From IMG/VR virus record IMGVR_UViG_3300045988_174371, positions 192,001 through 256,000 of that record: a DNA stretch of 64,000 nt; one strand, given 5' to 3'. This document shows, in pieces, positions 15,747-35,702 of the stretch. How positions within the stretch are numbered: position 1 is the stretch's first letter; each line of letters begins with the position of its first letter. The DNA is from a virus. Below the pieces are notes generated by a model that saw nothing but the letters and a program-made list of their open reading frames with translations, did no database searches and was not told the DNA's origin. Both the position numbers and the translations under genes were made by a program.

Positions 15747-15790
15747 GGGTGCCTATTTATGCGTTAGTGCACCTTTTTCTGGCTGGAGGC

Positions 15791-17362: not shown

Positions 17363-19953
17363 TAGGGGGTGCCTTCCTTTGGTGTGCTTTGGTCTTTGCG
17401 GGTTTGGACGCTTTCAGAGATGACTCCGCTCATGTTTCGCGGCTGGAATTTGACGGGCGGTAGTTGCTCTGATGCCGGTTTAGCGGGTTGGGTTAGTCGC
17501 GGCTTTTTGGGTGTTTGCGGGGGTGTTCCTTTCGGAGCTTGAACGATTTTAGGTTTCTTCACCTTGTTCATAGCGCCTGCGGGGGTACTTGGGCGAGGTG
17601 GTGCCACCGGGGGCGTTACGGGAACTGCTACCTGCGGAGCTACCGGGGGCTTGCTCTTCGGTGCTTGAGCCTTGCTTACAGTGGGTTTGGTTCGCGCTGT
17701 GGTCGGCTTGCTCTCCCTACGCTTAGGCGTTGTGGTACCCTCTTGGGTCTGTGCCTTAACGCGGGGCTTTGGGTAGCGTTTCGGGGTGGTTGTTGTGGTG
17801 GGCGGGGTGACGGGTTCAGATGGTACGCGGGGGAGCTTGGTGAGTACCTGTTCGGGGAGGATGATGTGGGTGAGCGTACCGTCCATCCTTTCGCGTATTT
17901 CCTTGGTGATGGGGTCAGTGTAGGGGGTTTTGCGGATTATCATGCCTTCGGTGTAGAAGGAGCCCTTGTCTGGGTTTGGGCGGCGGAGGTTGATGAGCTG
18001 TTCCTCAGACACGCGGGGCACGATAGCCTTTTCGGAGGACTTGTAGTAGCGTCGGTTGTCGTCCCACTGGAGGAGGTTCTTCCAGATAACACGCTCTCGC
18101 TTTGAGTCCACCTTGTAGCGCCTGATTTCTTTGGTTCCAACGAGGGAGACGATTCGCTTTGCGGTTTCGCCGCCCTTCATGCCACCGAGCACTACTAGGG
18201 TATCTGCGTTTACGAGGAGGCTGTTCACTGCCGCAGGGTCGTTTTTCTCGTAGAGCTGTTCAAGGTTCTGCTGTCCAAGAGAGATGCCGACGTTAGATGA
18301 GCGCGCTTTTTCGAGTAGACCTGCGATGCTGGTTAGCGGGATGGTCTGAAACTCGTCAAAGAATATTTGGATGACGTTGAGTTTCTGGGTGTCGTCGCGG
18401 CGGCGGTGGGATGACATGCTTGTTAGGAGGCTTGCGAGCATTTTGCCGAAGCCGGTACTGACTTCCACTTCGGAGTCCGCGTTGAAGTCGAGCAGGACAA
18501 TGGATGGCTTCGCGCCGGGTGCGACGATTTCGTCAAAGTTGATGTATGGCTCTCCATTCTGGGGCAGACCTAGCCAGCGTCCGTATGCTGAATTAAGCAT
18601 GATGCTGACGTTTCCTCGGGGAGTCTCCCAGGAGTTCTTGATGTTGCCGGATGCACCTTCTAGGATGCGGCGGCGGAGGTCTGCGCCGGTTTTATTGCCT
18701 TCGGGAAGGTGGTTGAGTATGGCTTCCGGGTGCATGAGAGCGCCGCAGAATCGACGGAACTCACCGTTATGCCAAGGGACACCTGCTTGTTCCAGTTCGT
18801 CTGCGATGAGTGCGTATTCTGCGGGGTTACTGCGTTCTTTGCGTTTCATGTACACTTCAAGCTCATCTAGTGAGTTGAGGAGTATTTGGAGGGTTGCCCA
18901 AACGTCGTTCTTATATTTCTGAGCGTCGTCTTGGTACTTCTGGAAGCCGATTGCGATGTCCAGCTTCTCGGAAGGCTTCAACCCTGCGAAGGGGTCTAGG
19001 AATGCTGGGCCATGTGGATTGTAGGCGTTGTCGTATTCGCCGGTTTCGGGGTTACCTTGGGTGAAGTGGTAGAAGTTAATGTCTTCTTCGGCGGCGTAGT
19101 TCGCAAGTTTTCGGGCAAGCGCGAGGTCTGCCTTCATGTTCACTAGGATGCTGGTAATGCCTAGCTTTGCGTTGGCGCGGATTTCGCTTTCGGTGGTGGC
19201 GGTCTTACCGCTACCTGGGGAGCCGACTTTGATGACGTGGCGGGGAATTTCGGGGACGGTAAACCATACGCCTTCGCCTGACTCTTCGTTAATACCGTAG
19301 GCTACACCGGGGGACATGTCAGAGCGTTCGCCGGGTAGGATGAAGTTAGCGCCGGAGACGATTTGAGCTTCGAGCTTGTCGCGCTTGCGGCGTTGGAATG
19401 GGGTTAGGCGGTATTTGAACTTCTTCTCGCTCATCCAGAGTGAGTCGTTGTATTTAATCTCTTCGTTGTGGTCGTAGTCGTATTGGATTCTTACGGCTAG
19501 GAGCCAGCCTAGGAGCGACCCGAGGATGATGCCGCCTATGGTGAATGGCGCGCTGAATGAGCCCACCAGGTCGAAGATACCTGAGGGGCTGAGAAGGTAG
19601 TTGCCGGGGTTCTTGGTGAAGGCTGAGAAGGCGGCTGAGAACTTTTGAGGGATGTTCAGGATGAACCATAGTGCCAGCCCGACAAGGGCTGTTCCTCCCA
19701 TATAGAGTCCCACCTCGGATGCCTGCATCATCTTTTTGCGGGTGAGGTAGTAGTATGACCAGCTCACAATGATGATTACAGCGAACAGGGCGGGGCTACA
19801 GAGCACGAGTGCAACCAAGATGAGCGCCCATTTGGTGAGGGTGTATAGCAGACCTGAGATGAGGTCGCCGCCGCTGGAGCTATTTGAGGGGGGTGAGGTG
19901 TCGTTAGGGACTTCGTTACCTTCGCGCTGGTAGTTCAACGCTTCCTGGTTCAT
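17362..19953 (-). CDS. type IV coupling protein (VirD4/TraG/TraD family) with Pro-rich C-terminal tail
   Basis: N-terminal TM helices. Walker A KVGSPGSGKTATT. Walker B and TraG-D_C-like block VIQIFFDEFQTIPLTSIAGLLEKARSSNVGISLGQQNLEQLYE...ETAKRIVSLVGT. The last ~170 aa are P/T/K/Q-rich. Confidence 0.8.
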   Translation of the reverse strand: MNQEALNYQREGNEVPNDTSPPSNSSSGGDLISGLLYTLTKWALILVALVLCSPALFAVIIIVSWSYYYLTRKKMMQASEVGLYMGGTALVGLALWFILNIPQKFSAAFSAFTKNPGNYLLSPSGIFDLVGSFSAPFTIGGIILGSLLGWLLAVRIQYDYDHNEEIKYNDSLWMSEKKFKYRLTPFQRRKRDKLEAQIVSGANFILPGERSDMSPGVAYGINEESGEGVWFTVPEIPRHVIKVGSPGSGKTATTESEIRANAKLGITSILVNMKADLALARKLANYAAEEDINFYHFTQGNPETGEYDNAYNPHGPAFLDPFAGLKPSEKLDIAIGFQKYQDDAQKYKNDVWATLQILLNSLDELEVYMKRKERSNPAEYALIADELEQAGVPWHNGEFRRFCGALMHPEAILNHLPEGNKTGADLRRRILEGASGNIKNSWETPRGNVSIMLNSAYGRWLGLPQNGEPYINFDEIVAPGAKPSIVLLDFNADSEVEVSTGFGKMLASLLTSMSSHRRRDDTQKLNVIQIFFDEFQTIPLTSIAGLLEKARSSNVGISLGQQNLEQLYEKNDPAAVNSLLVNADTLVVLGGMKGGETAKRIVSLVGTKEIRRYKVDSKRERVIWKNLLQWDDNRRYYKSSEKAIVPRVSEEQLINLRRPNPDKGSFYTEGMIIRKTPYTDPITKEIRERMDGTLTHIILPEQVLTKLPRVPSEPVTPPTTTTTPKRYPKPRVKAQTQEGTTTPKRRESKPTTARTKPTVSKAQAPKSKPPVAPQVAVPVTPPVAPPRPSTPAGAMNKVKKPKIVQAPKGTPPQTPKKPRLTQPAKPASEQLPPVKFQPRNMSGVISESVQTRKDQSTPKEGTP

Positions 19954-20051
19954 GGTGTCCTTTACTTTCGTGAGTGTTTAGGGTTTACGGTTACTTTTCC
20001 TATAGCGTTTGTTGCGGGTGGGGCGTATTCCTCGATGTGCCCTGCGGCTGA

Positions 20052-20060
20052 TGGTAGAAT
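20052..20060 (+). promoter_or_regulatory. candidate extended -10 element (TGGTAGAAT) for the plus-strand 401-aa gene
   Basis: TGGTAGAAT lies 38 nt upstream of the ATG at 20098, in the 144-nt divergent intergenic region. No good -35 element. Confidence 0.25.
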
Positions 20061-20097
20061 TACTTTTATCTACTACTTCTTTTGAAAGGATTGCGCA

Positions 20098-21303
20098 ATG
20101 ATTTACGATGCGTTGGATTGGGGTGGCTTCGAGTTTCCCAAGGTTGAGGATTTCTTGAGGTTGCGCTCGCTTGGCTTGAAGGATTGCAGGTCTAAGTGCG
20201 ACTTTGAGGATTACAATTCTGGGCTTATAACGGATGTTCTGGGCGTTCCGACTGATTGGTTTGGTTGGCGTGTCAGTAATGCCTTTGGTGGTGGCGCTGA
20301 TGGGTGGTATGACGATATGAGGTCTGAGTATGGTTTCAAGGTGTGTGATGTTGCTGAGTTCTCAGGTCTTTCAGAGGATAATGTGGTTCAGCTGTATCGG
20401 GAAGGATGCCTGCTCGCTGAGCGTTCGTTGAAGGATGGGGAGCTACTTTTCCCGCCTATTCAGTTTGAGGATGTGGATGAGACGCGGCGCATTTCGCCTG
20501 AGTTCTTTGAGTGTGCCAAGATTTTGACGCGAGGCGGTTTTGGTGGTGAGCGGAGCGTGCATTTCTTGTTCTTTCCCACCACTAATTACGGGCTACTTAC
20601 TGCCGCTGAGTTGTTGAAGACTGGTGATGACGGCTTGCGGGCAATGGTTATTGCGGACACTCATAATTATGTTCTGAACACTTATGTTGAGAAGAGCGCG
20701 AACGAGTGGGTTGAAGTGACGAAGGGTTCGGTGCCTAATCCTGCTGTGGTTCAGGCTTTTGCTGGGTCTGGGTTCTTGGATGATTCGATGGTGGGCGAGT
20801 CAGATGGTGAGTTCATGTTTTCGGATGTTAGTAGGGTGTTGAAGATGAGTGAGGGGTTGATGCTTGCTCGGTCGCAGAGGGGAAGATGGGGTTATTCGGC
20901 GCGCTGGGGGCATGGGCTGTGTCATACGAGTGTTGCGCGTGCTTTAGGTTTGCCTGCTGAGGATGTTGTTTCGCTCTGCAAAAGCGGGGAATTGGTGGTT
21001 CTAGATGTGCAGGATATAGATGATGATTTCGAAGAAGCCTCTAGCTTGGAGTACACGGTGGCTGACTTTCACCTGCTGAGGGAAGGCTCTTGGGAAGAGG
21101 GCATTAAGGTTAGCTTGTGCCCTGCTTCTGTGAGGTTGGGTAGGGCGCTTCGGGAGTTGGGATGGTCACCTAGAGGTATTGCAAGCTTTATGGATTCGCC
21201 TTCGCCGTGGTTTGGTGTTGTGCCTCCGATAAGGTATGCGCGTCTTGGTGAGGAGTATGAGGCGACTGTGATTGCGGTTGCCGCCGCTTTGCCTTGCAGG
21301 TAA
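20098..21303 (+). CDS. hypothetical protein with two internal HTH-plus-antitoxin-like (DUF2384-like) repeats; candidate regulator
   Basis: Two similar units: VCDVAEFSGLSEDNVVQLYREGCLL ... FLFFPTTNYGLLTAAELLKTGDDGLRAMV, and TSVARALGLPAEDVVSLCKSGELVVLD ... FMDSPSPWFGVVPPIRYARLGEEYEATV. Transcribed divergently from the T4SS operon. Confidence 0.45.
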   Translation: MIYDALDWGGFEFPKVEDFLRLRSLGLKDCRSKCDFEDYNSGLITDVLGVPTDWFGWRVSNAFGGGADGWYDDMRSEYGFKVCDVAEFSGLSEDNVVQLYREGCLLAERSLKDGELLFPPIQFEDVDETRRISPEFFECAKILTRGGFGGERSVHFLFFPTTNYGLLTAAELLKTGDDGLRAMVIADTHNYVLNTYVEKSANEWVEVTKGSVPNPAVVQAFAGSGFLDDSMVGESDGEFMFSDVSRVLKMSEGLMLARSQRGRWGYSARWGHGLCHTSVARALGLPAEDVVSLCKSGELVVLDVQDIDDDFEEASSLEYTVADFHLLREGSWEEGIKVSLCPASVRLGRALRELGWSPRGIASFMDSPSPWFGVVPPIRYARLGEEYEATVIAVAAALPCR

Positions 21304-21320
21304 TTAGGAAGGTGCGCAGG

Positions 21321-21363
21321 GAAGAGCCCTCTACTTGGTTTTTTGCCAGGTAGAGGGCTCTTC
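21321..21363. terminator. bidirectional terminator between convergent genes
   Basis: GAAGAGCCCTCTAC-15 nt (T-rich)-GTAGAGGGCTCTTC, between the stop of 20098..21303 (+) and the stop of dnaG (-). Confidence 0.65.
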
Positions 21364-21376
21364 TTGTGTTTTGGGG

Positions 21377-23131
21377 CTATCGGCGGTTGCGGCGGTTTGC
21401 GCGGGTTAGCATTTTGAGGGTTGTGTTGAACTCGCGGGTGACTTGTTCGGGGGTGAGAGTTGTGCTGTCCGCTTTGGTGGGGGTGATGAGTAGTTCTGCT
21501 AGGGGTGGGTTGGTGAAGTTGTCTGGGTGGAGGGTTTTACCGGCATGGGTGAGCTGTACGGCTTCGTTGTAGAGGTGCTGGATGGTGGCTGGTAGTTCGT
21601 TCCAGACTGGTAGTTCGATGAGTTGTGCGTATGCGCCGTAGTATAGGGCAAGATGAAGGAGTTTGCGGGCGGCGAGTAGTTGCCTGTTGCCTGCTTCTAT
21701 TAGGGCGAGGGTGTTTGTGTAGGTGACTTCATCTTGGGTGTTTGTCCATTGGCGGGTTAGTGTGGTTTTGTTGGTTCCTTGGTGTTGGGTTTGCTGGCTG
21801 GGTTTGCGGTGGGTGGTGGCGTGGTTCGTGAGGGCTCGCTCTGCTTGGTAGGTGTTGGTGTTGGTGTATTGGGCTGTGGTGGTGATGATGAGTTGTTGGA
21901 GGGAGGGGGTTGTGGTGTTGTTCAGCATTGTTGCCGCTTCGTTGAGGAATGCGGTTTGGGTGGTGAAGCTTTGGGGGTTGTAGATGTTTGCGTAGTAGTT
22001 GAGCGCGGCGATGGTTAGCGGCTGGATTGCGGTGTTGAGGTGGTTGGAGAAGTTGGCTTGCCCGTACTGTTGGAGGTAGTCGCATGGGTCGAGGTTTTCG
22101 GGCATGGCTACTGCCCACGACTGCGCTTGGGCTTGTGGGGCAGTGTGGTATGCGGCGGCGGTGGCTTTCATGCCTGCCTTGTCGCCGTCGAGGATGTAGA
22201 TGATGTTCCCAGTTTCTCCGATAAGTCGCTGGAGGATTTTGATGTGTTGGGCGGTGATTGCGGTACCGCTGGTGGCGTAGACGTTGGTGTACCCGTTGTC
22301 GTACATTGCGATGACATCGAATTGTCCTTCTACGATGTAGCAGATGTTTGTTTCACGGGTGCGCTGGTTTGCGTGGGAGATGTTGGGGTTGTATAGAAGC
22401 TTTTCTTTTTCGAATATTGGGGTTGCGCGACCGTTCACGTATTTGCGTTCTTCGTCGGGGTTGAGGGCACGTCCAGTGAACGATACGGGGGTTCCGTGCA
22501 TGTCGGTAATGGCAAACATGAGGCGGTCGCGCCAGAAGTCGTATAGTTCGCCGGTGTCTTTGTTCTGGGAGCAGACTCCGGCTAGGGTTAGTTCGTGGGG
22601 GGTGTAGGTTTGGGTGAGATGCTTGGTGAGTGCGTTGCCGCCGGGGGCGTACCCGTAGTGAGGCAGGTTTGGGTTGAGGGCGCGTTTGGTGACCTGAGCT
22701 TTCGCGGGGTGGTTCTCAGGGAGGTTATCGTATTGTGCGGTGTAGAAGTTCCATGCGGCTGTGGTGATTTCTTTGAGTCGGCGGTTGCTGGTGACGTTGC
22801 CTTCGTCGGGGTTTCTTTTGGGTAGTTCGATGGGCGGTTGCGCTGTCTCGGCTAGGTATTCGATAGCGTCGGTGAAGTTGCCGCCGTTGGTTTCCATTAC
22901 GAGGCTGATAACGTCGCCGGATTCGCCGCAACCGAAGCAGTGGTATGTTCCGGTGAGGGTGTTCAGGTTGAAGGATGGGGTGTTCTCGTCGTGGAAGGGG
23001 CAGAGGGCTTTGGCGTTTACGCCGCTGATTTGGACGGCGGTGTCTTTGGTGTCGCGGAAGGTTTGTTCGAACACGTCGATGATGTCGTGTGCTTCACGTA
23101 CTTTCTGGATTAGTTCTTGGCTGTAGCGCAT
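21377..23131 (-). CDS. dnaG: DNA primase DnaG
   Basis: CHC2 zinc finger CPFHDENTPSFNLNTLTGTYHCFGCGESGD. Toprim motifs YIVEGQFDVIAMYDNG and ILDGDKAGMKAT. The C-terminal third is T/N/Q-rich low complexity followed by a helical domain. Confidence 0.85.
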   Translation of the reverse strand: MRYSQELIQKVREAHDIIDVFEQTFRDTKDTAVQISGVNAKALCPFHDENTPSFNLNTLTGTYHCFGCGESGDVISLVMETNGGNFTDAIEYLAETAQPPIELPKRNPDEGNVTSNRRLKEITTAAWNFYTAQYDNLPENHPAKAQVTKRALNPNLPHYGYAPGGNALTKHLTQTYTPHELTLAGVCSQNKDTGELYDFWRDRLMFAITDMHGTPVSFTGRALNPDEERKYVNGRATPIFEKEKLLYNPNISHANQRTRETNICYIVEGQFDVIAMYDNGYTNVYATSGTAITAQHIKILQRLIGETGNIIYILDGDKAGMKATAAAYHTAPQAQAQSWAVAMPENLDPCDYLQQYGQANFSNHLNTAIQPLTIAALNYYANIYNPQSFTTQTAFLNEAATMLNNTTTPSLQQLIITTTAQYTNTNTYQAERALTNHATTHRKPSQQTQHQGTNKTTLTRQWTNTQDEVTYTNTLALIEAGNRQLLAARKLLHLALYYGAYAQLIELPVWNELPATIQHLYNEAVQLTHAGKTLHPDNFTNPPLAELLITPTKADSTTLTPEQVTREFNTTLKMLTRANRRNRR

Positions 23132-23178
23132 CTGCGGTTCCTTTGTCTGAGTGGTGGGGTGCCGGTTACTGTGAGAGT

Positions 23179-23697
23179 TTAGTAGTACGTGCCGAAGTCG
23201 TGTTGTCGGCAGACGTAGCCGAATCGGGCGGGGAGACCGTCTTTCGTAACGGGTTTAGCTTTCTTTGTCTGTTCCCATTGTTCGACTGCTTGGCTCCATT
23301 CTTTGAAGATGTTGTCGTATTGGCTGTTGAGAGCCATGAGCTCTTCGATGGTTTCCTGAGGCTGTTCTTCGTTGGAGTGTTCTAGGTGCGCGCGCTGGGC
23401 GGCTTCGAGCCTGGGCTTTGCAACTTCCAGCAGGTTCCTCATCTTATTGGTGGCTTCAGTAGCGGCGGTGGCGATGGTGCGGCGGCTACTGTCTTTAGTT
23501 TTGGATGCCCAGGCTTCAATTTCTCGGTTGGTGACCGACATAGAGGTGAGGATGCTAGTGACGGAGTTGGTGAGGGCGGTGTATCCGACAAGGATAAGAG
23601 GCGGGACAGTACTCATGATGTGGGAGTCTTTCTTTTGGATGTGTTTAGAGAGTCGTGCGGCACCCCTGAAACCAGTAGGTAGACAGGGGTGCCGCAT
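23179..23697 (-). CDS. hypothetical protein (172 aa; true start may be the internal Met of MSTVPPL)
   Basis: ORF co-oriented between nrdH-like and dnaG. No motif recognised. Confidence 0.4.
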   Translation of the reverse strand: MRHPCLPTGFRGAARLSKHIQKKDSHIMSTVPPLILVGYTALTNSVTSILTSMSVTNREIEAWASKTKDSSRRTIATAATEATNKMRNLLEVAKPRLEAAQRAHLEHSNEEQPQETIEELMALNSQYDNIFKEWSQAVEQWEQTKKAKPVTKDGLPARFGYVCRQHDFGTYY

Positions 23698-23715
23698 TTG
23701 TTGTGTGGGGAGCTG

Positions 23716-24069
23716 TTACTGCTCGCTGGATTCGCTGATTGCCACCTTGAGCACGTCGGGGATGAAACCTGAGAAGCAGATTTCGTTCTCGTCGCTTTCA
23801 TGCTGGCTCACTCCGGGGAGGCTGAGGTAGCGTTCGGGGTGTTCCGTGCGGATGGTCACGATAGGTGCCTGCATGATGTTCGGGTAGCGGCTCTTGATGT
23901 ATTCCAGCTTCTCGGGCTGTTCGTCTACCTTGTAGTTGTCGTAGGTGATGCCTGCGCCGTCTAGTACTCGTGCAGTCTGCTTGCACTGGATGCATTTGTT
24001 CTTGCTGTAGACGGTAATCGTCGGAGTAGCCATCGGGTTTTCTCTCCCTGGTTGTAGTTGGTGGGACAT
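23716..24069 (-). CDS. nrdH: NrdH/glutaredoxin-like redoxin with C-terminal extension
   Basis: ITVYSKNKCIQCKQTARVLDGAGITYDNYKVDEQPEKLEYIKS...QAPIV is a thioredoxin-fold pattern with a CxxC (CIQC). An alternative start at MATPTITVY is possible. Confidence 0.6.
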   Translation of the reverse strand: MSHQLQPGRENPMATPTITVYSKNKCIQCKQTARVLDGAGITYDNYKVDEQPEKLEYIKSRYPNIMQAPIVTIRTEHPERYLSLPGVSQHESDENEICFSGFIPDVLKVAISESSEQ

Positions 24070-24205
24070 TCATATTCTACGTGTTCCGCCTTGGGTTTCA
24101 CAAGGCGGTTAGGTGGGGCGTAAGTATTTTTCTTCTAGCCCCAGTATGTCATAGCGGTTTCATTGTGGTTCTAAGGGGTGTTTGGGTGGGTCTCTGGTGT
24201 GCTCT

Positions 24206-24327
24206 GTGGCTATTTTGTGGGGAGAGTGGCTATTCGTGGTGCCTTAGGGACTTTTCGGGGTTATATGGATGGTTTTTCGGTAGTGGTTTTTTGGTAGGTT
24301 TTTGGGGTTTGGGTGGTTTTTCGGTAG
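24206..24327 (+). repeat. iteron-like short direct repeats in a C-depleted intergenic tract
   Basis: GTGGCTATT at 24206 and 24226 (20-bp spacing). TGGTTTTTCGGTAG at 24270 and 24314 (perfect), plus the one-mismatch copy TGGTTTTTTGGTAG at 24284. Confidence 0.55.
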
Positions 24328-24540
24328 CTGAGGGTAGGTGTGGGTGGCGTGTTGCGTGGCGTGTTTGCGGGGGTCGGGGTGTGTTGTGGGGTGGTTCTAC
24401 TATTGATTAGTGATAAGACTTATCCGGGGGTGGTGTTTTTGAGGCTGTTTAGGGCTTTGCGATGGTCGGCTTTGATGATTTGCGCTCTGCCGCTGTGGGG
24501 TTAGTTGATGCTAGGCGGAGCCGTTGGTCTGCTGACGTTT

Positions 24541-24569
24541 TTAAAAATAAAGGCGCAAGGGGGTATAAT
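24541..24569 (+). promoter_or_regulatory. candidate sigma-70-type promoter for the Rep-like gene
   Basis: TTAAAA (24541-24546), a 17-nt spacer, then TATAAT (24564-24569). This would give a ~165-nt leader. GGAGG at 24725-24729 precedes the GTG at 24737. Confidence 0.35.
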
Positions 24570-24736
24570 GGTGGTTGAGTTTTTGGGGCGACCGTCGGTA
24601 TCCTGTAGGTGAGGAAAAGCTGATGGTGAGTGAAAATGGTTTTGCCGTCCTATTGGTGGTGTGCTAGACTGTTCCCAATCACATGTTATGAAGTAATCTG
24701 TTTGTTTTAAGTACCTCGGAGAAAGGAGGGTCACTC

Positions 24737-27283
24737 GTGGCTATGTCAGCAGTACGTGATGAAGACGCGGTTATGGTTCCGGTGGAGCCTGAGTCCGCGT
24801 CTGTTTTTGTGCCTGTAAACTCTGCCAAGGCGTTCACGGGTGACTCACTGTATCTGCGTGCCCGCCGTGAGGCTGTCCTTGCTCATGCTGAGAATAGGCG
24901 TGAGCAGGGTGCTGGTTATAGCCCGTACAGTGTCGTGGACTCTGACGGGTGCCTACTTCCTGAGAACGTTTCTGCTGAAGATGCTTTTGGAATGTATGTT
25001 GAGCGTGAGGCGTGGGTTCTGCCGCTTGCTTATGTGCATGGCGGTTTGCCGGTGTCTGCGCGTTCTGTTTCGGCTGGCTCTGCGTTTAATGAGCAGGGCG
25101 TGTGGGAGCGTTCTTCGTTGGCGCGTGTCGTTCAGCATGTGCCCTCTCCTGTTCTTGGGCTGAGTGGCGTTGAGTTGCTGGAGATGCCTTCGGGTGTGAT
25201 GGCGCGTCGTGCTTTGGCGTTTATTGCTTCACGTGTTCTGGAGACTGGTGCACGTGAGTTTGTTGTGCCTTCTCAGCCGCGTGCTTTGGCGCGTGTTGCT
25301 GGTGTTCCGGCGCTTTCTGCTGACGGGTATCGCCGGTTTGCTGAGGTGTTCCGTATGTGCCTTGGATTGAGGACTGCTGTTTATGACCGTGCGGCTGATG
25401 GTGGGCGTGGGGAGCTTCTTCATGCGTTCAGTGTTGGCGCGGATGTCTCTGACTCTTCGATGGGTATCATGTACAGCTTGGAGGGTAACGACTCTGGGTT
25501 CGCTGTGGTACGTGTTTCGGATGAGTTCTTTGATTACGTGAGCGGTAGCAATGTTGTGGCTATCCCTGCGTCTATGTGGGGTAGCCGGGTTGTGCGTTCT
25601 TCTGCTGTGGCGTTGGATGTTTTGGCGCTAGTTTTGGCGCGAGCTTCTGCCATGCGTGGCTCTTCTAAGGGCGGTAAGGCTTGGGTTGCTTGGTCGCATC
25701 TGGCGCGTCAGTTCGCTGTGTTCTCTTCCTCTGTACACAAGATGCATAGTGTGTACCGTAACGCGGTGAATGCTGTGCGTTCGCTGTTCGTACTGGAAGG
25801 CTCTGAGGACGTTGTTTCTCTTGTTGGTGGTAAGGGTAAGCGTGGTTTCTCTGGTTTCATGATTCAGGCGTACCGTTCTGCCCTGAAAGTTCTGCGCCCT
25901 CACGCCGTGAAGGTGGGCGATACGCTCTCTAAGCAGGTGCGTGGCGATGTTCAGAGGGAGACTTTGAATGAGTCTGCCGCTAAGGGTGAGCAGGTGCTTA
26001 TCCCTATCCGTGCACCCCGCAAGGGTAACATTTACCGTGCTGTAGACCTTGACCTGCTCTCTACCAAGATGAGCGGTAAGCTGGGCATTTACTTGCCTGC
26101 AATTAGCGAAGAATGGGAGCGTATTGTTGATACTGTTATCGACAGGTACGCCGCTTCCGCGCGCAACGGCAACCTCAAGAAGGTGAACAGCTGGCAGGCG
26201 TATGTTGAAGCGTCTATTAAGAACCAGCCCGCCCTCATGGACACCCCGAAGGAAGCGTCCACCCCTGTACGCCCCTCTCGCGCAATCCAGACCCCGAAGG
26301 TAACCGAAGACACTACCACTACCGAAAAGGCTGTCCAGGAGCCGCATGTAGCCGCTGACGGTCTACCGCGCCGCAACAGCGAGCAGACCCCGAAGACTTC
26401 CGCCGCTAAGCGTAAGGACAGCAACTTCGGTGCACCCTCACCCGTCTACATGTCCGAAGCGTTGGTGAAGAACTCCACCGTGAACACTTTCGACCTTCTC
26501 GATGAGAACTTCCTCAAGCAGTACATGAACGAAGACTGCATCATCACCCTTGACGTGGACACCCCCGAGTACTACGCATACTCTGACGCGCTACAGGCAG
26601 GAGCCGTGCCCGTAAATAACTACGAGCAGTGGAAGAAGGGCGTAAAGTTCCCCCCTGTCCGCGTGAAGCTCCCCTCCGGCGGCTACACCTACCTGAACGC
26701 CGGTAGCCGCTACACCAAGGGCGACGAATACTACTGCCGCGTCCTCCTCACCGAAGACTTCAGCAAGGACATCAAACGCACTATCTCCAACATCCGTGGA
26801 GACCGCCCTGTCACCCCCACCGAAGTTCCCATCCCCCCCGCGCCCGCCCCGGTTGCCCCTGTAGCGACTCCTGCACCCGTAACTCAGGTAGCAGAAACCA
26901 TTCCTCCGCGCCCTGAGTCGAAAAAGGAAGAGTCTGCTCCGGTATCTGAGCCTGCCGCACCCAAGAAGCGGAAGATTTGCTCCAACATGCCTAAGCATGT
27001 CGCTGAATCCCTCGCACCCTGGGACAAGGTGGACGCACACTACACCTACGTAGACGCGGAAGAAACCCTCGACGGCTACCTTGCGAACTTCAACGCTGAC
27101 CCGCTAGAGGCTGAAGTCATCAATGAGGCATCCCTGCCGCCTGTGGCTAACGAGGAGGAAGCAGAAGCTCGCGCCGCTATTCTGAAGTGGATTAACAACT
27201 CGAAGGACAGGAAGCCCCTACTGGATAGCATTATGAACCCCGCTCCTGAGCCTGACGACGAGTACCCCATCCTCAAGTACTAG
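24737..27283 (+). CDS. candidate plasmid-type replication initiator (RepA/TrfA-like winged-helix N-terminal half) with long Pro-rich C-terminal half
   Basis: Pattern similarity only: GVMARRALAFIASRVLETGAREFVVPSQPRALARVAGVPALSADGYRRFAEVFRMCLGLRTAVYD, then SAVALDVLALVLARAS...KAWVAWSHLARQFAVFSSS...YRNAVNAVRSL. Sits immediately downstream of the iteron-like tract. GTG start with a GGAGG SD. Confidence 0.4.
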   Translation: MAMSAVRDEDAVMVPVEPESASVFVPVNSAKAFTGDSLYLRARREAVLAHAENRREQGAGYSPYSVVDSDGCLLPENVSAEDAFGMYVEREAWVLPLAYVHGGLPVSARSVSAGSAFNEQGVWERSSLARVVQHVPSPVLGLSGVELLEMPSGVMARRALAFIASRVLETGAREFVVPSQPRALARVAGVPALSADGYRRFAEVFRMCLGLRTAVYDRAADGGRGELLHAFSVGADVSDSSMGIMYSLEGNDSGFAVVRVSDEFFDYVSGSNVVAIPASMWGSRVVRSSAVALDVLALVLARASAMRGSSKGGKAWVAWSHLARQFAVFSSSVHKMHSVYRNAVNAVRSLFVLEGSEDVVSLVGGKGKRGFSGFMIQAYRSALKVLRPHAVKVGDTLSKQVRGDVQRETLNESAAKGEQVLIPIRAPRKGNIYRAVDLDLLSTKMSGKLGIYLPAISEEWERIVDTVIDRYAASARNGNLKKVNSWQAYVEASIKNQPALMDTPKEASTPVRPSRAIQTPKVTEDTTTTEKAVQEPHVAADGLPRRNSEQTPKTSAAKRKDSNFGAPSPVYMSEALVKNSTVNTFDLLDENFLKQYMNEDCIITLDVDTPEYYAYSDALQAGAVPVNNYEQWKKGVKFPPVRVKLPSGGYTYLNAGSRYTKGDEYYCRVLLTEDFSKDIKRTISNIRGDRPVTPTEVPIPPAPAPVAPVATPAPVTQVAETIPPRPESKKEESAPVSEPAAPKKRKICSNMPKHVAESLAPWDKVDAHYTYVDAEETLDGYLANFNADPLEAEVINEASLPPVANEEEAEARAAILKWINNSKDRKPLLDSIMNPAPEPDDEYPILKY

Positions 27284-27292
27284 GCAGAGGCA

Positions 27293-27337
27293 CAGAAAAC
27301 CCCACCCACGCTTTCTATACGTGGGTGGGGTTTTCTG
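27293..27337 (+). terminator. intrinsic terminator (18-bp stem plus T-tract)
   Basis: CAGAAAACCCCACCCACG-9 nt-CGTGGGTGGGGTTTTCTG followed by TTG. Begins 10 nt after the stop at 27283. Confidence 0.75.
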
Positions 27338-27382
27338 TTGAGCCACGTACTGAAGGTATGCTCAGCTCAGGTTGGAGAAACA

Positions 27383-27421
27383 CTTACGCCCCCAAACCTT
27401 AGGAAGGCTTGAGGGCGTAAG
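27383..27421 (-). terminator. candidate terminator downstream of the rpf-like gene
   Basis: CTTACGCCC-21 nt-GGGCGTAAG. Lies ~80 nt after the stop at 27499. Confidence 0.3.
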
Positions 27422-27498
27422 CTGTGAGAAGGCGGGGCACTCAACCCCTACCCAAACAATAGTTAAGCTATTGTCAGCTGTGTAATTATTATTCTACA

Positions 27499-28281
27499 CT
27501 AGCTTCCCGGAATGGTCAAGACCTGACCCGGAAAAATAAGATTCACATCGTAAATCACATCCACATTAGCGTCCGCAATAGCCTGATAGCCGCCTGCAAC
27601 ACCCAAACGGCTTGCAATGAGCGATAGCGTATCACCAGCAACAACCTGGTACGTGGAAGAAGCCGCAACCGGAGCCTTCACAGGGGCAACGGCAGGAGCC
27701 GGAGCCTCAGTAGCAACCGGGGCGACCGGAGCAGACTCAACAGCCGCAGTAGAAGCCGCATCTGCCGAAACAGCAGGAGCCTCAACAACAGGGGTAACTG
27801 GAGTAGCTACAGCAGGAGCCGCCGGAACGGTGGCAGGAGCCGGAGCTACCGGAGTCTGCACAGTGCCCTGAGGAGCAACTACCGTAGAAGTAGTAGCCGC
27901 CGGAGCAGACTGAACTGCACCAGAGTTAGAGTAGGTGGGGGTTGCCGCGCCAGACAAACCGTACTTGGCAGTACAAGCGGGCCATGCGCCCCAACCCTGC
28001 AAAGCTAGAAGACGCTCACCAGCTTCAATCTGAGCCTCCTTGGAAGCGGTGTGCGGAGAACCGCTCATACCTACACCATTCCAAGACTGCTGAGTGAACT
28101 GCAAACCGCCATAGAAACCGTTACCAGTATTGATAGACCAGTTACCACCCGACTCACACTGAGCGAGCTTTTCCCACGTAGCAAGGTCAGCGGCATTAGC
28201 CGAAGGAACCGCAAGTGCCCCAACGGAAAGACCACCAAGTGCAAGAGCTACAGCGGTACGACGAATGGAAGTGTTCTTCAT
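27499..28281 (-). CDS. rpf: resuscitation-promoting-factor (Rpf) transglycosylase-like domain protein with C-terminal LysM
   Basis: Signal peptide. Rpf core WEKLAQCESGGNWSINTGNGFYGGLQFTQQSWNGVG...EAQIEAGERLLALQGWGAWPAC. An Ala/Pro/Val-rich linker. LysM YQVVAGDTLSLIASRLGV...NLIFPGQVLTIPG. Confidence 0.85.
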   Translation of the reverse strand: MKNTSIRRTAVALALGGLSVGALAVPSANAADLATWEKLAQCESGGNWSINTGNGFYGGLQFTQQSWNGVGMSGSPHTASKEAQIEAGERLLALQGWGAWPACTAKYGLSGAATPTYSNSGAVQSAPAATTSTVVAPQGTVQTPVAPAPATVPAAPAVATPVTPVVEAPAVSADAASTAAVESAPVAPVATEAPAPAVAPVKAPVAASSTYQVVAGDTLSLIASRLGVAGGYQAIADANVDVIYDVNLIFPGQVLTIPGS

Positions 28282-28620
28282 AATACTCCTTAGGGGTGCC
28301 CTCGCTCGCCCCGTCCCCAGGGCTCAAACGCGCCTCCGCCCGCCCCTCTTTGTTAAAGTGGGCTAAGTTTCTAGTTCAGCTTCGTGGGCGGCTCATCACC
28401 CCATCAAAATCACCTTTGAACAGTACCAGCCGTAAAGCGCGTGCTCTCAGCTAACACTAAGGTGACCATCCGGCGTGAGGGCGTGAAGAAGAACCGGGCA
28501 CCTTCACCATCTAACCAAACGGTATGTGGCGAAGATACGAGTAACTGCTAGTCAAAGCGGTTACCAGAAAACATGATACCTGGGTTACCTGCTAGAGGCA
28601 ACCCAGCTCTACACATATAG

Positions 28621-28657
28621 CAAACGCCGGAAGCTCACAGGGAACTCCCAGCGTTTG
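28621..28657 (-). terminator. candidate terminator downstream of ligA
   Basis: On the minus strand, CAAACGCUGG-17 nt-CCGGCGUUUG, a 10-bp stem including one G-U pair. Lies 36 nt after the ligA stop. The U-tract is weak. Confidence 0.35.
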
Positions 28658-28692
28658 AAGGTTCAAGTTTTTTCGGTGTGCCACGCGCCTGC

Positions 28693-30831
<2,139 letters not shown>

Positions 30832-30860
30832 CTATCCTACAAACCTCCTTCATAAATGCT

Positions 30861-30900
30861 GATGGTTCCCCGGCACTCCTAAAAGCACCAGGGAACCATC
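30861..30900 (-). terminator. candidate terminator (10-bp stem)
   Basis: GATGGTTCCC-20 nt-GGGAACCATC, 13 nt after the stop at 30913. Confidence 0.4.
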
Positions 30901-30912
30901 ACAAAACAATAC

Positions 30913-31842
30913 TTAGCCCAACACTCCAGCAGGAACCCTATCCACCCAACCAGAGCCAGAGAAGGCACCGGCGGGCAACCCGCAAGCAGACTCCAAAGCG
31001 CGAGCATACTCACGCCCCCTCAGCCTAGCAGACCGTGCGACATGAAGCATAGCCTGCACATCATTACGGGAATACGCCGCCCGCATCTTACGAACACACA
31101 TCTCCACATAATCATTAACATTGGGCTTCGGCGGCTCCACCCTAAAATCAAGCACCCTCACAAGCTCACAAGGAACCGGCGAACCTACCTGACCAGTAAA
31201 CGTCTTCATCACATGCCAAGCATCTACAGCCCACACCTGAGCCGTAGAGCCATCAGGAAGCTTCACCGGCACCTTCTTAGCGAAGCCACGGTCAATAACC
31301 CACTGACGCGGCTTCCCCAACTTCCGTTCCCGAGAACCACACGGCTGTTCACGGTCAATATGGAACCACCAACCACCATCAGCCATAAGCGCCCTAAAAG
31401 CCCCCGGCGACAAGTGAAAATAAGGTGCAATCATATGGGGCAACACAAATACGCCAGGCTTAACATTCGCAGGAATGGTCTGGTTCACTGGAATACGCTT
31501 CACATGCACCGGCGAGTTTACTTGCAGAACACGCAACAGCTCCTTCATGTTCCACAACTGCTGGCGGTCACAGAAAGCAACAATCTGAGAACGGCTCATC
31601 TTCTCAGTCGTCTTACCGCCCGCAAGGTAACCGCCACGGGTTAGTGCGGCAAGAACCTCATCCCGCCCAATGTTGAAGCCAGCGACCGCCTGCTGAGGCG
31701 GCAAATACATCGGCTTAGCCCCCGAAGTATGCAAAGCAATCGGCGTAGGAAGGGTCTTCACCTGCAACTCACGCTGAGACTTAGTGCGCATATAGAATCT
31801 CCTCAATGTCTTTAATAACGAGTTATGGCAACTTCCAAACAA
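30913..31842 (-). CDS. hypothetical protein (309 aa; probable start at MRTKSQ)
   Basis: ORF co-oriented with its neighbours. No motif recognised. Confidence 0.45.
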   Translation of the reverse strand: MFGSCHNSLLKTLRRFYMRTKSQRELQVKTLPTPIALHTSGAKPMYLPPQQAVAGFNIGRDEVLAALTRGGYLAGGKTTEKMSRSQIVAFCDRQQLWNMKELLRVLQVNSPVHVKRIPVNQTIPANVKPGVFVLPHMIAPYFHLSPGAFRALMADGGWWFHIDREQPCGSRERKLGKPRQWVIDRGFAKKVPVKLPDGSTAQVWAVDAWHVMKTFTGQVGSPVPCELVRVLDFRVEPPKPNVNDYVEMCVRKMRAAYSRNDVQAMLHVARSARLRGREYARALESACGLPAGAFSGSGWVDRVPAGVLG

Positions 31843-31887
31843 GCCCCCACATTTACAGACAATGGGACATTCACCAACCGCCGGTAT

Positions 31888-33807
31888 CTACGAGGTCTTG
31901 CTAGAAGAAAATACTCCCTCAATTATCGCATAAACCAGCTTGGAAAGCACACTAATCAGCAAGAAGACAGGAATGAGGACACCAGAAACCAACGAAGTCA
32001 TCACCACACCCAAAACGGTCTGGATAGGCGACTCAAAAGTCACCGCCCCATACCCATGAGACTTCACCTCACGAGCACGCTTCCACCACAGCCACAACCC
32101 ACTCAGAAACCTCACCAGCAAAGCAGAACAAGGAATCCCCCAAATGATACCCCTAAAACCAACAACAACAGCAGTCATATGCTCAGGCACCCCTTCAGGG
32201 AACAACGAAGTTACAGCCCAGGCGGTGATGCTAGGCGCGGCAAACCACCACCCCAAAGCAACAATCAAAGAAGCTAAGAGCGAGACCCACCAGATAGGCA
32301 CAGCCCTATAACTAGAAACCCACGGCATCGAACGAGGATTCTCAGCAGACAGAGCATCAAACGCAATACTGTACGAGCCGCCCTTCAAAAGCTCCATGAT
32401 AGGCGGGCGAGGTATCGAAGCGCCATCGTTATCAACAACCGCCAACCTACCCGAAATCTTCTCCAACTCAGGCGGCTCACCAGGCAACCTGCCGCCATTA
32501 GCAGACGCACCCTGCCCTGCCGCCGTATTACCCTGCTGAGGCGTAGCACCCTGATAAGCCTGACCCTGCGTGCCCTGACCAACGATTACCGGCGGAGCAA
32601 CTGTCTTCTTCATCGTCAGGGCAGACATTAGACTAGGCGGCTGTACACCAGGAGTCGCCTTCTTCGCCTTAGACTCACGCTTAGCCTGCTTCTTCTCAGC
32701 CTTCGCCAAAATAGCAGACATATCCTCAGCAGACTTATCCTCACCCCAAATGTCAGCATCCGGCTTGCGCGAAGCAAAACGGCACATAGGGCAAGAGGAA
32801 CCGTCACGCACATCCCACCAATGCAGAGGCGACACAGAGCACTGCTTTAAATTCACGTACCCGTCCGCGTCACGCGCGAACAGCCCATCGAAAACCTCGA
32901 TAACAGCATCAAACGTGGGGCGCTTCGCAGGGTCACCCGAAAGCCCCGCCCCAATCAAAGCATGAACCCTACTAGGGATAGCCTCATACTCCAAGTCATC
33001 AAGCTTTGAAAAGCCACGCGGCAACTTCGGAACAAAAGTCGGATACACACCCAAGTCGATAAGCTCGGTCACATCCTTATGCTCGCCTTTGTAATTACAA
33101 GCCGTGGGGTGCGCACGCCCCATCAACGCATTAAAGAGCATCACAACGAACGCATACATATCCGTAGCGACAGTGCGACGGTTACGCTCCTCCGCATAAC
33201 TGCCTTTACTAATCTCCGGCGCTGTAAACTCAGGCTTGCCAACTACACAAGGGTAGACAGTATTCCCTTCGCTAATCTGAACACTATCAGCGTCCACAAT
33301 GCGGACAGTAGCGTCCTTCGCAACCAGCACATTAGACTCATTCACATCGCCAACCATATGCCCGGCGGTGTGCACAGCGTCAATAGCCACAGCAAGGTTT
33401 CTAGCCATTAGCAAGGCGTGCATGACAGACCATTCAGGGAAACGCTTACGCCTATGGCGAGTATGGGCAACCTCCATAAAGCTACGGTAAACATCCATCT
33501 GAAGCTTCTTCATCAAGAAGCCCGCAAATTTACCCTCAGAATCATAAAGGTTCCCCAAATTCCACACAATCGAATCTGTCTGCGGAACACTACTGACCAT
33601 CGCCAAACACTTAGCTTCACGTGCCGCACGTTTACTCTCGTCCTGATGGTAAACCTTGCCCACCAAATCGCCAGCAGAACCCAACACAGACGAACCTACC
33701 GAAGCCACCCCATAAACAGAGCCTTCGCCGCCACGCCCAAGCGGTGAATCCTCCAGACGGACAGGGAAAGAACTCCCATCCGCCAAACGGACCGTATAGT
33801 TAGCCAC
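31888..33807 (-). CDS. Ser/Thr protein kinase-like protein with zinc ribbon and C-terminal multi-TM region (TerY-triad type)
   Basis: G-loop LGRGGEGSVYG and Lys in VGKVYH. Atypical catalytic loop GDVNESNVLV. Metal-binding IVDADS. APE-like FTAPE. CxxC ribbon (SSCPMCRF). A Gln/Gly/Ala/Pro-rich linker, then ~4 TM helices. Confidence 0.7.
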   Translation of the reverse strand: MANYTVRLADGSSFPVRLEDSPLGRGGEGSVYGVASVGSSVLGSAGDLVGKVYHQDESKRAAREAKCLAMVSSVPQTDSIVWNLGNLYDSEGKFAGFLMKKLQMDVYRSFMEVAHTRHRRKRFPEWSVMHALLMARNLAVAIDAVHTAGHMVGDVNESNVLVAKDATVRIVDADSVQISEGNTVYPCVVGKPEFTAPEISKGSYAEERNRRTVATDMYAFVVMLFNALMGRAHPTACNYKGEHKDVTELIDLGVYPTFVPKLPRGFSKLDDLEYEAIPSRVHALIGAGLSGDPAKRPTFDAVIEVFDGLFARDADGYVNLKQCSVSPLHWWDVRDGSSCPMCRFASRKPDADIWGEDKSAEDMSAILAKAEKKQAKRESKAKKATPGVQPPSLMSALTMKKTVAPPVIVGQGTQGQAYQGATPQQGNTAAGQGASANGGRLPGEPPELEKISGRLAVVDNDGASIPRPPIMELLKGGSYSIAFDALSAENPRSMPWVSSYRAVPIWWVSLLASLIVALGWWFAAPSITAWAVTSLFPEGVPEHMTAVVVGFRGIIWGIPCSALLVRFLSGLWLWWKRAREVKSHGYGAVTFESPIQTVLGVVMTSLVSGVLIPVFLLISVLSKLVYAIIEGVFSSSKTS

Positions 33808-33894
33808 AAATCACTCCAAAATACGAGAAACAAAACAAAGGGTGCCCACCCCGCCTACCAGATAGGCAGACCAGGCAGGCACCCTCCCAAAACA

Positions 33895-34779
33895 CTAATC
33901 GTCCAACTTCAACCTGAAGCCGTCAATGAACCCATAGTCACCAGGGACAATGACGAACTCATTAGACTCAGCTACCATACTCAAGCCACCCGCAGGCGGC
34001 TTATTCAAGCAACCAGCCATAACGAACGTCGTATCATCGTCCAAATACTTCTCACGCTCAAGATGCGCCAAGAAATCATCCGTATGAGTAGGCGAAAAAA
34101 GCACCAAATACAGAGGCGGCTCACCCGCCGCCCCCTCACGGAACAACGAATCCTCAAGCACCTCATCAGACTCAGCCGTAGCCGCCTTCACCAAAGGATT
34201 CTTCATCCCATCCGAAGCAACCATGCACCACGTAGCATTAGTACCACAAGAAGCAATCACACGCGGGTCATCCGACGTAGTAAACGTAGTAATGTTCGGG
34301 GCATCCCACATCTCAACATACGACTGATACTTAGGGGTGGAGCCCGCATAATCACCCGAGAGGACGAACGCATCACCAAGTGTCACATAAGCGAAGACCC
34401 CCTCGCAAAGAAGCGCCGCCGCAACGGTACAACCCATCTTGGCAGAATCCTTCGCCGCCCACACGGTATTCATCGCAACCGACAATACCGACAAAAGCTC
34501 ATCACGTAGCTTCAGCGCGTCAGCCTCACTCTCATCCGAAAGAGTGAAACGCTCCAGCACCGAACGCCCCTCAGAAACAATCGTGTCAGCAACTAGCCGA
34601 GCCCCTTCGCGGGACTTCGGCAAAGACCCCGCGCCGTCACAAGTAACAATAACGGCTCGACCAGCCTCATCATGCCAAGAACCATAAGCGTCCTGGTTGG
34701 TATCGTTGTCATGGTATACAGGCTTAGGGACAGACCTGCCCGAAATTAAACACCAGTCGTACAGAAAAGAATCAGTCAC
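33895..34779 (-). CDS. PP2C-family protein phosphatase
   Basis: VIVTCDGAGS and MVASDGMKNPL metal-binding Asp clusters, ~290 aa. Lies between the kinase and vWA genes. Confidence 0.6.
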   Translation of the reverse strand: MTDSFLYDWCLISGRSVPKPVYHDNDTNQDAYGSWHDEAGRAVIVTCDGAGSLPKSREGARLVADTIVSEGRSVLERFTLSDESEADALKLRDELLSVLSVAMNTVWAAKDSAKMGCTVAAALLCEGVFAYVTLGDAFVLSGDYAGSTPKYQSYVEMWDAPNITTFTTSDDPRVIASCGTNATWCMVASDGMKNPLVKAATAESDEVLEDSLFREGAAGEPPLYLVLFSPTHTDDFLAHLEREKYLDDDTTFVMAGCLNKPPAGGLSMVAESNEFVIVPGDYGFIDGFRLKLDD

Positions 34780-34831
34780 AGACCGCGCCTTCCAAAATCA
34801 ATCTCCAAAAACAGTTTAAGATGAGGATACC

Positions 34832-35638: not shown

Positions 35639-35702
35639 CTAACGGTCTAAAGAAGATACTCTCTAAAGACATAGCGTTAGGTGGTTCTTATCCGCCTGGA
35701 AA

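Follow-up and report, generated by a model that had tools for sequence, protein, structure and literature searches.

The strand-composition reversal and its setting

The window analyzed here is a stretch of 64,000 nucleotides (positions 192,001 to 256,000 of the IMG/VR record IMGVR_UViG_3300045988_174371) belonging to a giant element of human oral metagenomes. Its left arm carries genes of a type IV secretion system (T4SS) and its right arm genes for DNA replication and repair. Between the two arms lies an open reading frame (ORF) of the plus strand, called rep below, which encodes a protein with an initiator-like fold. This gene is preceded by a non-coding stretch with three iteron-like direct repeats and followed by a perfect inverted repeat that has the look of a two-way terminator (Table 1). 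Inside rep, the plus strand turns abruptly from G/T-rich to C/A-rich.

The original prediction had noticed this reversal near 26 kb from the letters alone, and calculations along the whole window show that it is real. G+T accounts for 62.0% (0.620) of the plus strand in the left arm versus 42.8% (0.428) in the right arm (chi-square 2257). The GC and AT skews of the plus strand were +0.19 and -0.30 over positions 1-25,900, and -0.14 and +0.15 over positions 26,100-64,000. In 2-kb windows, the GC skew ranged from +0.06 to +0.41 and the AT skew from -0.15 to -0.47 throughout the first 26 kb, while from 26 to 64 kb the GC skew was -0.04 to -0.25 and the AT skew mostly positive. Windows of 300 nt placed the sign change at 25,900-26,100, and the cumulative keto excess (G+T minus A+C) reached its maximum at position 26,137, corresponding to codon 467 of rep. 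The reversal is completed within about 200-600 bp, entirely inside the ORF. Concomitantly, the third codon positions switched as predicted: in blocks of 60 codons, their keto skew dropped from +0.60 (block centered at 25,907) to +0.03 (26,087) and went down to -0.50 by 26,807. The skew is stronger to the left of the flip than to its right, where it peaks at 28-34 kb and is close to zero beyond about 67 kb. A typical bacterial GC skew is around 2.5% (PMC8941118), as compared with 10-40% at this locus.

No repeat and no AT-rich stretch was found in the switch zone between 25.9 and 26.4 kb. A cis-acting element within rep was sought through the conservation of synonymous sites, but there was no peak of such conservation, and synonymous divergence showed no dip at the flip. 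A partial inverted iteron at 26,302-26,328 was present only in the lineage of the window and was judged to be a chance match. Finally, a scan of the window with an actinobacterial dif-like consensus, allowing up to 3 mismatches, gave no match.

Table 1. Coordinates of the main features, given in window positions unless stated otherwise (L003 and L135 are related contigs).
Feature	Position	Strand	Remarks
Left arm	1..25900		Plus strand G/T-rich; T4SS genes, nearly all on the minus strand; part of a 66.6-kb block of uniform polarity
Lysozyme gene	7780-9267		Neighbor gene in the T4SS arm
VirB4/TraC-like gene	14136-15644		Weak match
T4SS-arm neighbor gene	16136-17362		TcpC domain in its L003 orthologue
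VirD4-type coupling protein	17362..19953	-	TraG-D_C and TrwB_AAD_bind matches; marker of the T4SS arm
DnaG-type primase	21377..23131	-	Most skewed third positions of all window genes (+0.73 / -0.69)
Non-coding stretch upstream of rep	24081..24460		Strongest skew of the window: GC up to +0.58, AT down to -0.61
Three iteron-like direct repeats	24266..24327	+	15 nt each, 410-470 bp upstream of rep
rep	24737..27283	+	848-aa Rep-like protein; among the few rightward-transcribed genes of the region
Switch zone	25900..26450		Signs of GC and AT skew reverse; left edge sharp (at most 180 bp), right side more gradual
Right arm	26450..64000		Plus strand C/A-rich; genes mostly on the minus strand
Perfect 19-nt inverted repeat	27292..27338		Between the convergent rep and Rpf-LysM genes
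lysM-Actino RNA motif	28282-28505	-	Rfam RF03090, 156.5 bits; directly upstream of the Rpf-transglycosylase/LysM gene 27499-28281
Polymerase III alpha, remaining piece	48824-51535	-	Split DnaE
Clamp-loader-like (delta'/tau-type) gene	51538-52827	-	Between the two DnaE pieces
Polymerase III alpha, N-terminal piece	52843-54345	-	Split DnaE; PHP domain and first part of the NTPase domain
Surroundings of the second switch (S2)	About -38 to -41.3 kb (L135 12,080-15,400)		Read on a 99%-identical contig

Gene orientation does not explain the flip, since the minus strand carries nearly all genes to the left and to the right of it. At four-fold degenerate sites, all read on the plus strand, the GC and AT skews of minus-strand genes were +0.54 and -0.20 in the left arm and -0.20 and +0.57 in the right arm; for plus-strand genes the values were +0.32 and -0.68 on the left and -0.46 and -0.04 on the right. 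The same change is seen within rep, from +0.51 and -0.81 (codons 1-400) to -0.47 and -0.24 (codons 521-848), and in intergenic DNA (left +0.19 and -0.35; right -0.08 and +0.16). The extreme values of the non-coding stretch upstream of rep show a mutational pressure free of coding constraint. One might still ascribe the flip to selection on protein composition or codon usage, or to a transcription-coupled bias, and not to a mutational bias that depends on position. The N-terminal half of the Rep-like protein is indeed rich in V, G, S, A and F and its C-terminal half in P, K, T, E and N, and the right-arm coding strands are enriched in G/T, the outcome expected from transcription-coupled deamination. 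However, four-fold sites and intergenic DNA flip as well, which rules out amino-acid composition as the sole cause. Furthermore, plus- and minus-strand genes of one arm (recA and a 401-aa gene among them) share the same plus-strand polarity, while the genes of the two arms are transcribed in the same direction yet have opposite skew. These explanations were rejected on the combined evidence of four-fold sites, intergenic DNA and both gene orientations, and we give them practically no weight; the independence from gene orientation claimed at the outset thus stands.

The composition of the two halves of the ORF is so different that a junction could also be suspected, whether an inversion, a recombination chimera or a misassembly, which would have left a long ORF open by chance. 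Strongly skewed DNA does yield long spurious ORFs, such as one of 770 codons opposite a proline/threonine-rich gene at the second switch described below. A database search with the protein, which bears on the comparison of its two halves that the original prediction had called for, gave 38 homologues (BLASTP; 38-97% identity, 71-100% coverage of the query and at least 85% in 36 of the 38). All of them carry both halves, and their alignment contains invariant columns in each. The same gene occurs, identical, in ENA, JGI, Logan and IMG/VR assemblies, and gene order and orientation on both sides are kept in all relatives. Because the homologues span both halves with invariant residues in each, we take the ORF, on this comparative evidence, to be a real conserved gene and neither chimeric nor spurious. 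A chimera or inversion was discarded on homologue coverage and synteny, and a junction of any kind appears highly improbable.

The Rep-like gene, its relatives and the circular element

The protein comprises tandem winged-helix domains (residues ~130-380), a helical region, a low-complexity linker and a conserved C-terminal domain (~585-690). Most of its homologues are encoded on contigs of roughly 200-440 kb. The protein and two of its distant homologues gave no match to Pfam even at E<=10; the protein had none in NCBIfam or PHROGs, and a profile search of the PDB returned only chance-level hits. An AlphaFold model of residues 130-500 (pLDDT 81, pTM 0.67) contains two winged-helix units. In a Foldseek search of the PDB with this domain, the top 33 matches were all RepE54, RctB domains 2-3 or Rep-DUE complexes (probability 0.66-1.00, E 2e-3 to 6e-2), with TM-scores of only 0.30-0.48 that restrict the support to the level of the fold. 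The full-length model matched the same families. The predicted structure thus supports, at that level, the Rep-like identity that had been proposed for the gene.

The iteron-like repeats mentioned in the original prediction were also found. Their sequence is GTGGTTTTTYGGTAG, the family consensus is GTGRYTWTTYGGTAG, and the start-to-start spacings are 14 and 30 nt. The triple array has identical spacing in the relatives L010, L005 and L006, whose Rep proteins are 40-76% identical, and occurs as a four-copy variant in L003. The motif was not detected elsewhere in about 140 kb of the element, nor was a second iteron cluster, and a two-repeat pattern scan of metagenome contigs retrieved 26 contigs with one cluster each. 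This conservation supports the repeats beside rep as candidate iterons. The flip had been described as coinciding with both the Rep-like gene and the repeats: it does lie inside the gene, but it is 1.7 kb away from the repeats. No skew sign change occurs at the repeats themselves, and the segment 24.0-25.9 kb has uniformly the polarity of the left arm.

The flip was observed at the same gene in independent assemblies and in relatives with Rep proteins 99, 76, 55 and 47% identical. In the relatives at 99, 76 and 55% identity, the last being contig k141_371717 of ERZ27318843, it falls at codons 310-467 of the orthologue. In the clade with a 772-aa protein (47% identity), the third positions flip near codon 400, with flanks that are unskewed or patchy, and in the clade with a protein of about 700 aa there is no flip. 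The G+C content of the relatives is 0.55 in skewed versus 0.48 in unskewed segments, which fits A->G plus C->T changes on one strand. The substitution spectrum polarized from W, L008 and L010 was uninformative owing to parsimony bias at saturated skewed sites.

Distant relatives are mosaics (L005 at 14,673-18,360, L006 at 3,206-4,447 and 16,136-18,918, and L130). They contain patches of 1-1.5 kb in which 90-100% of the third positions of the coding strand are C or A (60-codon blocks with skews of +1.00 / -1.00); these patches abut unskewed ones, with boundaries inside genes, and the polarity of a kinase gene is opposite to that of the window orthologue. The bias is missing altogether from some lineages of the family: L136 (ENA ERZ28635734 scaffold_17, 308 kb), which carries a 58%-identical homologue of a gene 5.7 kb beyond the second switch, has essentially no strand skew over 20 kb. 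Gene content varies next to rep as well. The NAD-dependent ligase gene (28693-30831) is present in the lineage of the window and in L003 and absent from L005 and L006, and downstream of rep L006 has two SocA/Panacea-domain genes in its place. Two co-occurring relatives from one sample with 76% Rep identity (IMG/VR 3300045988_174689 and _179268) both terminate 75.5-75.9 kb rightward of the flip, and the complete circle has some 54 kb more; a repeat common to both, or a segment exchanged recently, may be located at these contig ends.

A human oral metagenome assembled with megahit (k127) yielded a contig of 360,715 bp (ENA ERZ989713, k127_64826) that encodes an identical 848-aa product. Because this contig exceeds the 360,588-bp JGI copy (3300053491 Ga0557493_011585) by exactly 127 bp, the element is read as a closed circle of 360,588 bp (~360.6 kb). 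The position of rep varies between contigs, as circular permutation predicts. On the ENA contig, the window spans positions 117,232-181,231 in reverse orientation. Replication from ends, one of the alternatives raised by the original prediction, is not compatible with this circular assembly. Moreover, a linear end-primed replicon of the adenovirus or phi29 type, which we rejected, predicts the weakest skew at the point of convergence, where it is strong here.

The element encodes VirD4, a weakly matching VirB4/TraC-like protein, cell-wall hydrolases and the DnaG-type primase. The right arm carries genes for the NAD-dependent ligase, an STK/PP2C pair, a sortase, RecA and RecX, a split DnaE with a clamp-loader-like protein, a Pif1-like helicase and an SbcD-like protein. 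Single-stranded DNA-binding protein (SSB), an SbcC-like protein, a PD-(D/E)XK nuclease, more than one sortase and the Rpf-LysM protein are also encoded by the element. Neither a relaxase nor a nick site was identified. The split gene for the alpha subunit of DNA polymerase III occupies the minus strand at 48824-54345; its layout is the same in L130 and L131, with an IS605/TnpB gene inserted there in L131. Among the 120 matches listed for the C-terminal piece (48824-51535), several dozen are homologues of 872-929 aa with 36-38% identity, many of them on other contigs of 265-697 kb, and other matches have an intein domain. The 872-929-aa homologues suggest that further families of giant elements have the same split polymerase.

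RecA is closest to that of Rothia mucilaginosa (77% identity) and then to those of other Micrococcaceae, and the lysM-Actino RNA motif supports an actinobacterial host, which is probably an oral Rothia. G+C is 0.50-0.57 in the window and 52-54% in the element. No relative was found in PLSDB, INPHARED or the GTDB representative genomes, and no literature on a Rothia megaplasmid or on such an element of Rothia was found. The family, whose members of 290-440 kb are found repeatedly in metagenomes of the human mouth and probably have Rothia as their host, appears to be undescribed.

A second switch and the proposed direction of replication

The skew profile was extended to 139.9 kb of the 360.6-kb circle by stitching the ENA contig to a 99%-identical IMG/VR contig. 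To the left of the window, the skew is only about +0.05 to +0.1 between -5 and -29 kb, then rises to +0.4 to +0.5 and ends abruptly at about -40.5 kb. This second rise, 57-66 kb to the left of the flip, excludes a purely local gradient centered on it. The cumulative keto curve has its minimum at -40,513 and its maximum at 26,137, with uniform polarity between them and the opposite polarity beyond both. The minimum marks a second switch, S2, of origin-type polarity, located 66.6 kb to the left of the flip. The T4SS arm is thus a single-polarity block of 66.6 kb with an origin-type switch at one end and a terminus-type switch at the other. The skew peaks at both boundaries of the block and is weak in its middle; outside, it decays over about 40 kb to the right of the flip, while beyond S2 the DNA is C/A-rich for about 4 kb and then close to zero skew. 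About 90% of the genes in the 140 kb examined are on the minus strand, inside as well as outside the block.

S2 lies in about 1.5 kb of non-coding DNA, where the composition per 100 nt changes from G3 C51 A45 T1 to G52 C7 A2 T39 within about 150 bp. A non-coding stretch of 675 nt with about 95% A+C is followed by 700 nt with about 90% G+T, and the latter contains two units of about 145 nt, 247 nt apart, with the hairpin GTTGAAAATCAAC. An origin would be more at home in this non-coding, repeat-bearing setting than in the middle of an ORF. An ORF of more than 400 codons beside S2 encodes a low-complexity, proline/threonine-rich product; the ORF of 770 codons on the other strand is probably spurious, since DNA of this composition can hardly contain stop codons.

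According to the usual rule, the displaced strand, which is the template of the lagging strand, becomes G/T-rich. The combination of A->G and C->T on one strand is the mark of deamination of single-stranded DNA, as known from mitochondrial genomes. On each side of the flip, it is the strand whose 5'->3' direction points towards ~26.05 kb and away from S2 that is G/T-rich; under this rule, we infer that it is the displaced strand of a fork moving to ~26.05 kb. The change from plus to minus fits a terminus, in agreement with the converging forks of the original prediction, and S2 at -40.5 kb provides the partner with origin polarity. On balance, we lean towards the view that the flip has terminus polarity and reflects a change of mutational strand bias associated with replication, the origin being at S2 and the short replichore ending in rep. 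Replication would start at S2. One fork would move rightward across the 66-kb T4SS arm, head-on to its genes, and would stop inside the Rep-like gene, by arrest or by meeting the second fork. The latter would move leftward through the remainder, co-directional with the almost uniformly minus-strand genes. The displaced strand may stay single-stranded unusually long near S2 and near the flip, as in a mitochondrial D-loop or behind a fork waiting at an arrest site; such a prolonged exposure is suggested by the very large skew, which peaks beside both switches. The stronger skew and the sharper edge to the left of the flip would be expected if the early-arriving fork of the short arm waits there.

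An origin at S2 with a terminus in rep accounts for the polarity of the four flanks, the character of S2, gene orientation, the left-side skew and the peaks by both switches. By the standard rule, head-on replication is limited to the 66-kb block, and transcription and replication run the same way in the 73 kb examined beyond its ends; the head-on transcription of the T4SS arm that had been proposed would follow from this model. With switches 66.6 kb apart on a circle of 360.6 kb, the terminus is not opposite the origin and the replichores measure about 66 and 294 kb. As to the original interpretation as a whole, the terminus polarity, the Rep-like gene and the repeats were retained, and replication from ends and the chimeric ORF were abandoned.

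Several points weigh against this model. The polarity rule is an empirical one for cellular replisomes, and the element has its own DnaE, clamp-loader-like protein, primase, SSB and ligase. The supposed terminus, and not the supposed origin 66 kb away, is where the sole initiator-like gene and the sole iteron cluster lie. A sharp terminus that close to the origin needs a fork barrier, and no barrier sequence was found at 25.9-26.4 kb; the repeats, 1.7 kb away, are on the wrong side for either fork. The flip confined to rep in the 772-aa clade and its absence in the ~700-aa clade fit only if recombination mosaics are assumed, and for the patchy patterns of distant relatives we can only invoke recombination between lineages of different skew. 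In addition, S2 was read on the 99%-identical IMG/VR contig only; the relative with 76% Rep identity has the same rise in skew, and its locus ends before S2. Finally, the profile covers about 140 kb of the circle, and further switches may exist in the other ~220 kb.

A possible, though less probable, explanation is a mitochondrion-like, strand-asynchronous replication with a D-loop-type S2 and a fork parked in rep, or else an origin in rep with the G/T rule inverted. In the asynchronous case, single-stranded DNA at S2 and behind the parked fork would drive one strand almost to pure G+T, and the winged-helix initiator-like protein, or the transcription of its gene, would provide the fork arrest that creates the 66-kb head-on replichore. 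The inverted case, with S2 as the terminus, has origins inside rep genes as precedents, namely in lambda O and in RepA_N plasmids. Its polarity could come from an error-prone polymerase of the element acting on the lagging strand, or from a late start of leading-strand synthesis. The flip has the Rep-like fold and conserved upstream repeats beside it, with one iteron cluster per element; it is tied to rep in clades whose Rep proteins are 47-99% identical, is as sharp as a defined start site would make it, and has the replisome genes clustered around it. The loss of a nearby barrier can also turn a unidirectional replicon into a bidirectional one (PMC7858055). But the leading strand would have to be C/A-rich, and all the 73 kb examined outside the 66-kb block would be replicated head-on to its genes. 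At the flip, neither repeats, nor an AT-rich unwinding element, nor synonymous-site constraint was found; the repeats are 1.7 kb off, within left-arm polarity, and it is S2 that resembles an origin in being non-coding and repeat-bearing. In L005, L006 and L130, furthermore, the genes on the right side of rep carry left-arm polarity. We know of no bacterial replicon with a C/A-rich leading strand, and consider an origin inside rep unlikely.

The skew could also result from a non-vegetative process that repeatedly exposes one strand of the 66-kb T4SS block as single-stranded DNA, either relaxase-driven unwinding or rolling-circle replication from an oriT-like S2 stopping at about 26 kb, or breaks and resection at the boundaries; the opposite bias of the flanks would then come from resection or from ordinary replication. 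The coincidence of the block with the T4SS arm, the hairpins and repeated units of S2, and the distribution of the skew, with its peaks at the boundaries, weak middle and decay outside (~40 kb to the right of the flip, ~4 kb beyond S2), are consistent with such a process. A 5'->3' resection from a break at 26 kb would yield the observed polarity, and the element has RecA, RecX, SbcC/SbcD-like proteins, a PD-(D/E)XK nuclease and a Pif1-like helicase. Against it, neither a relaxase nor a nick site was identified, and resection over tens of kilobases would be needed at every generation to saturate third codon positions. To our knowledge, a stop site midway in a conserved ORF has no precedent. Exposure of the conjugative T-strand alone was rejected by reasoning, since the transferred strand is the same around the whole circle and would give no sign change. 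Taken together, a non-vegetative origin of the bias appears rather improbable, and the model with an origin at S2 and a terminus in rep is the one that we retain below.

Comparison with known systems

Bacterial termini are found at the maximum of the cumulative skew, as exemplified by dif of Escherichia coli and terC of Bacillus subtilis, and at terC the gene of the winged-helix terminator protein, rtp, lies beside its own binding sites. The element shares with bacterial termini a sharp change from plus to minus and an origin-polarity partner on the same circle, and with rtp a gene for a winged-helix DNA-binding protein with upstream repeats at the site. In contrast, its skew is 10-30 times stronger, the switch is 66 kb and not ~180 kb from the putative origin and falls within a coding sequence, neither a Ter nor a dif-like site was found, and the fold of the protein is initiator-like and not RTP- or Tus-like. 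With RepE of mini-F and RctB of Vibrio chromosome 2, the Rep-like protein has in common the tandem winged-helix fold and direct repeats upstream of its own gene, and with RctB also its large multidomain size. It differs from both by the lack of a sequence-family match, by having only three repeats with no recognized AT-rich unwinding element, and by a skew that puts a terminus, not an origin, at the gene.

In its proposed replicon geometry, the element resembles the Pseudoalteromonas chromids, where the terminus is close to the origin and the rep gene, and where the direction of replication was shown by read depth (PMC7858055). These chromids have very unequal replichores, with the terminus near rep and one fork doing most of the work, and related replicons differ in the position of the switch, as here. 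However, the chromid repA is at ori2 with dif2 adjoining, whereas in the element it is the switch of terminus polarity that lies in the Rep-like gene, with the one of origin polarity at a distance of 66 kb, and the direction is deduced. As a type of element, the nearest counterparts are the Inocles, giant extrachromosomal elements of oral Streptococcus with 24-32% G+C (PMC12340149). Like them, the element belongs to circles of ~250-370 kb that are abundant in human saliva metagenomes and were long missed by short-read studies, and it carries sortase, cell-wall and DNA repair genes. Inocles are distinguished by the InoC marker, the Streptococcus host and a gene orientation that switches at ori and ter, whereas the present element has 52-54% G+C, a RecA closest to Rothia and no switch of gene orientation at the flip. 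Membership among the Inocles was rejected on its G+C (0.50-0.57), its Rothia-like RecA (77%) and its actinobacterial lysM-Actino RNA.

Origins and termini of plasmids and phages assembled from metagenomes are routinely called from skew switches. In this element, the only Rep-like gene bears a switch of the 'wrong' sign, so that anyone equating rep with the origin would give the replicon the opposite orientation. Should the model be true, the element would be a natural case of a very unequal replichore pair with site-specific arrest in a coding gene. It would also be a bacterial case of mitochondrial-scale asymmetry, with third positions up to 100% C/A in relatives and non-coding DNA of about 95% two bases. 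Such a case would be useful for the study of single-strand DNA damage, of head-on conflict across conjugation operons and of the tolerance of proteins to compositional pressure. It would give a first view of an apparently undescribed family of 290-440-kb oral elements, probably carried by Rothia.

The strength of the bias brings the element close to vertebrate mitochondrial DNA, which replicates by strand displacement with a D-loop. In both, one strand is enriched in G/T through A->G and C->T with third positions near saturation, the C/A-rich coding strands belong to genes that face the displacing fork (in the element, as the model has it), and the skew depends on position and is extreme in the non-coding origin region. 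Mitochondrial DNA, however, has one polarity around the circle, whereas the element has two switches, is 20 times larger and has a bacterial-type replisome; its single-stranded intermediates are those that we infer from the skew. A skew-defined terminus is a known kind of feature. What is unusual here is its site inside an initiator-like gene, the replichores of about 66 and 294 kb, the mitochondrial scale of the skew, and its occurrence in an apparently undescribed family.

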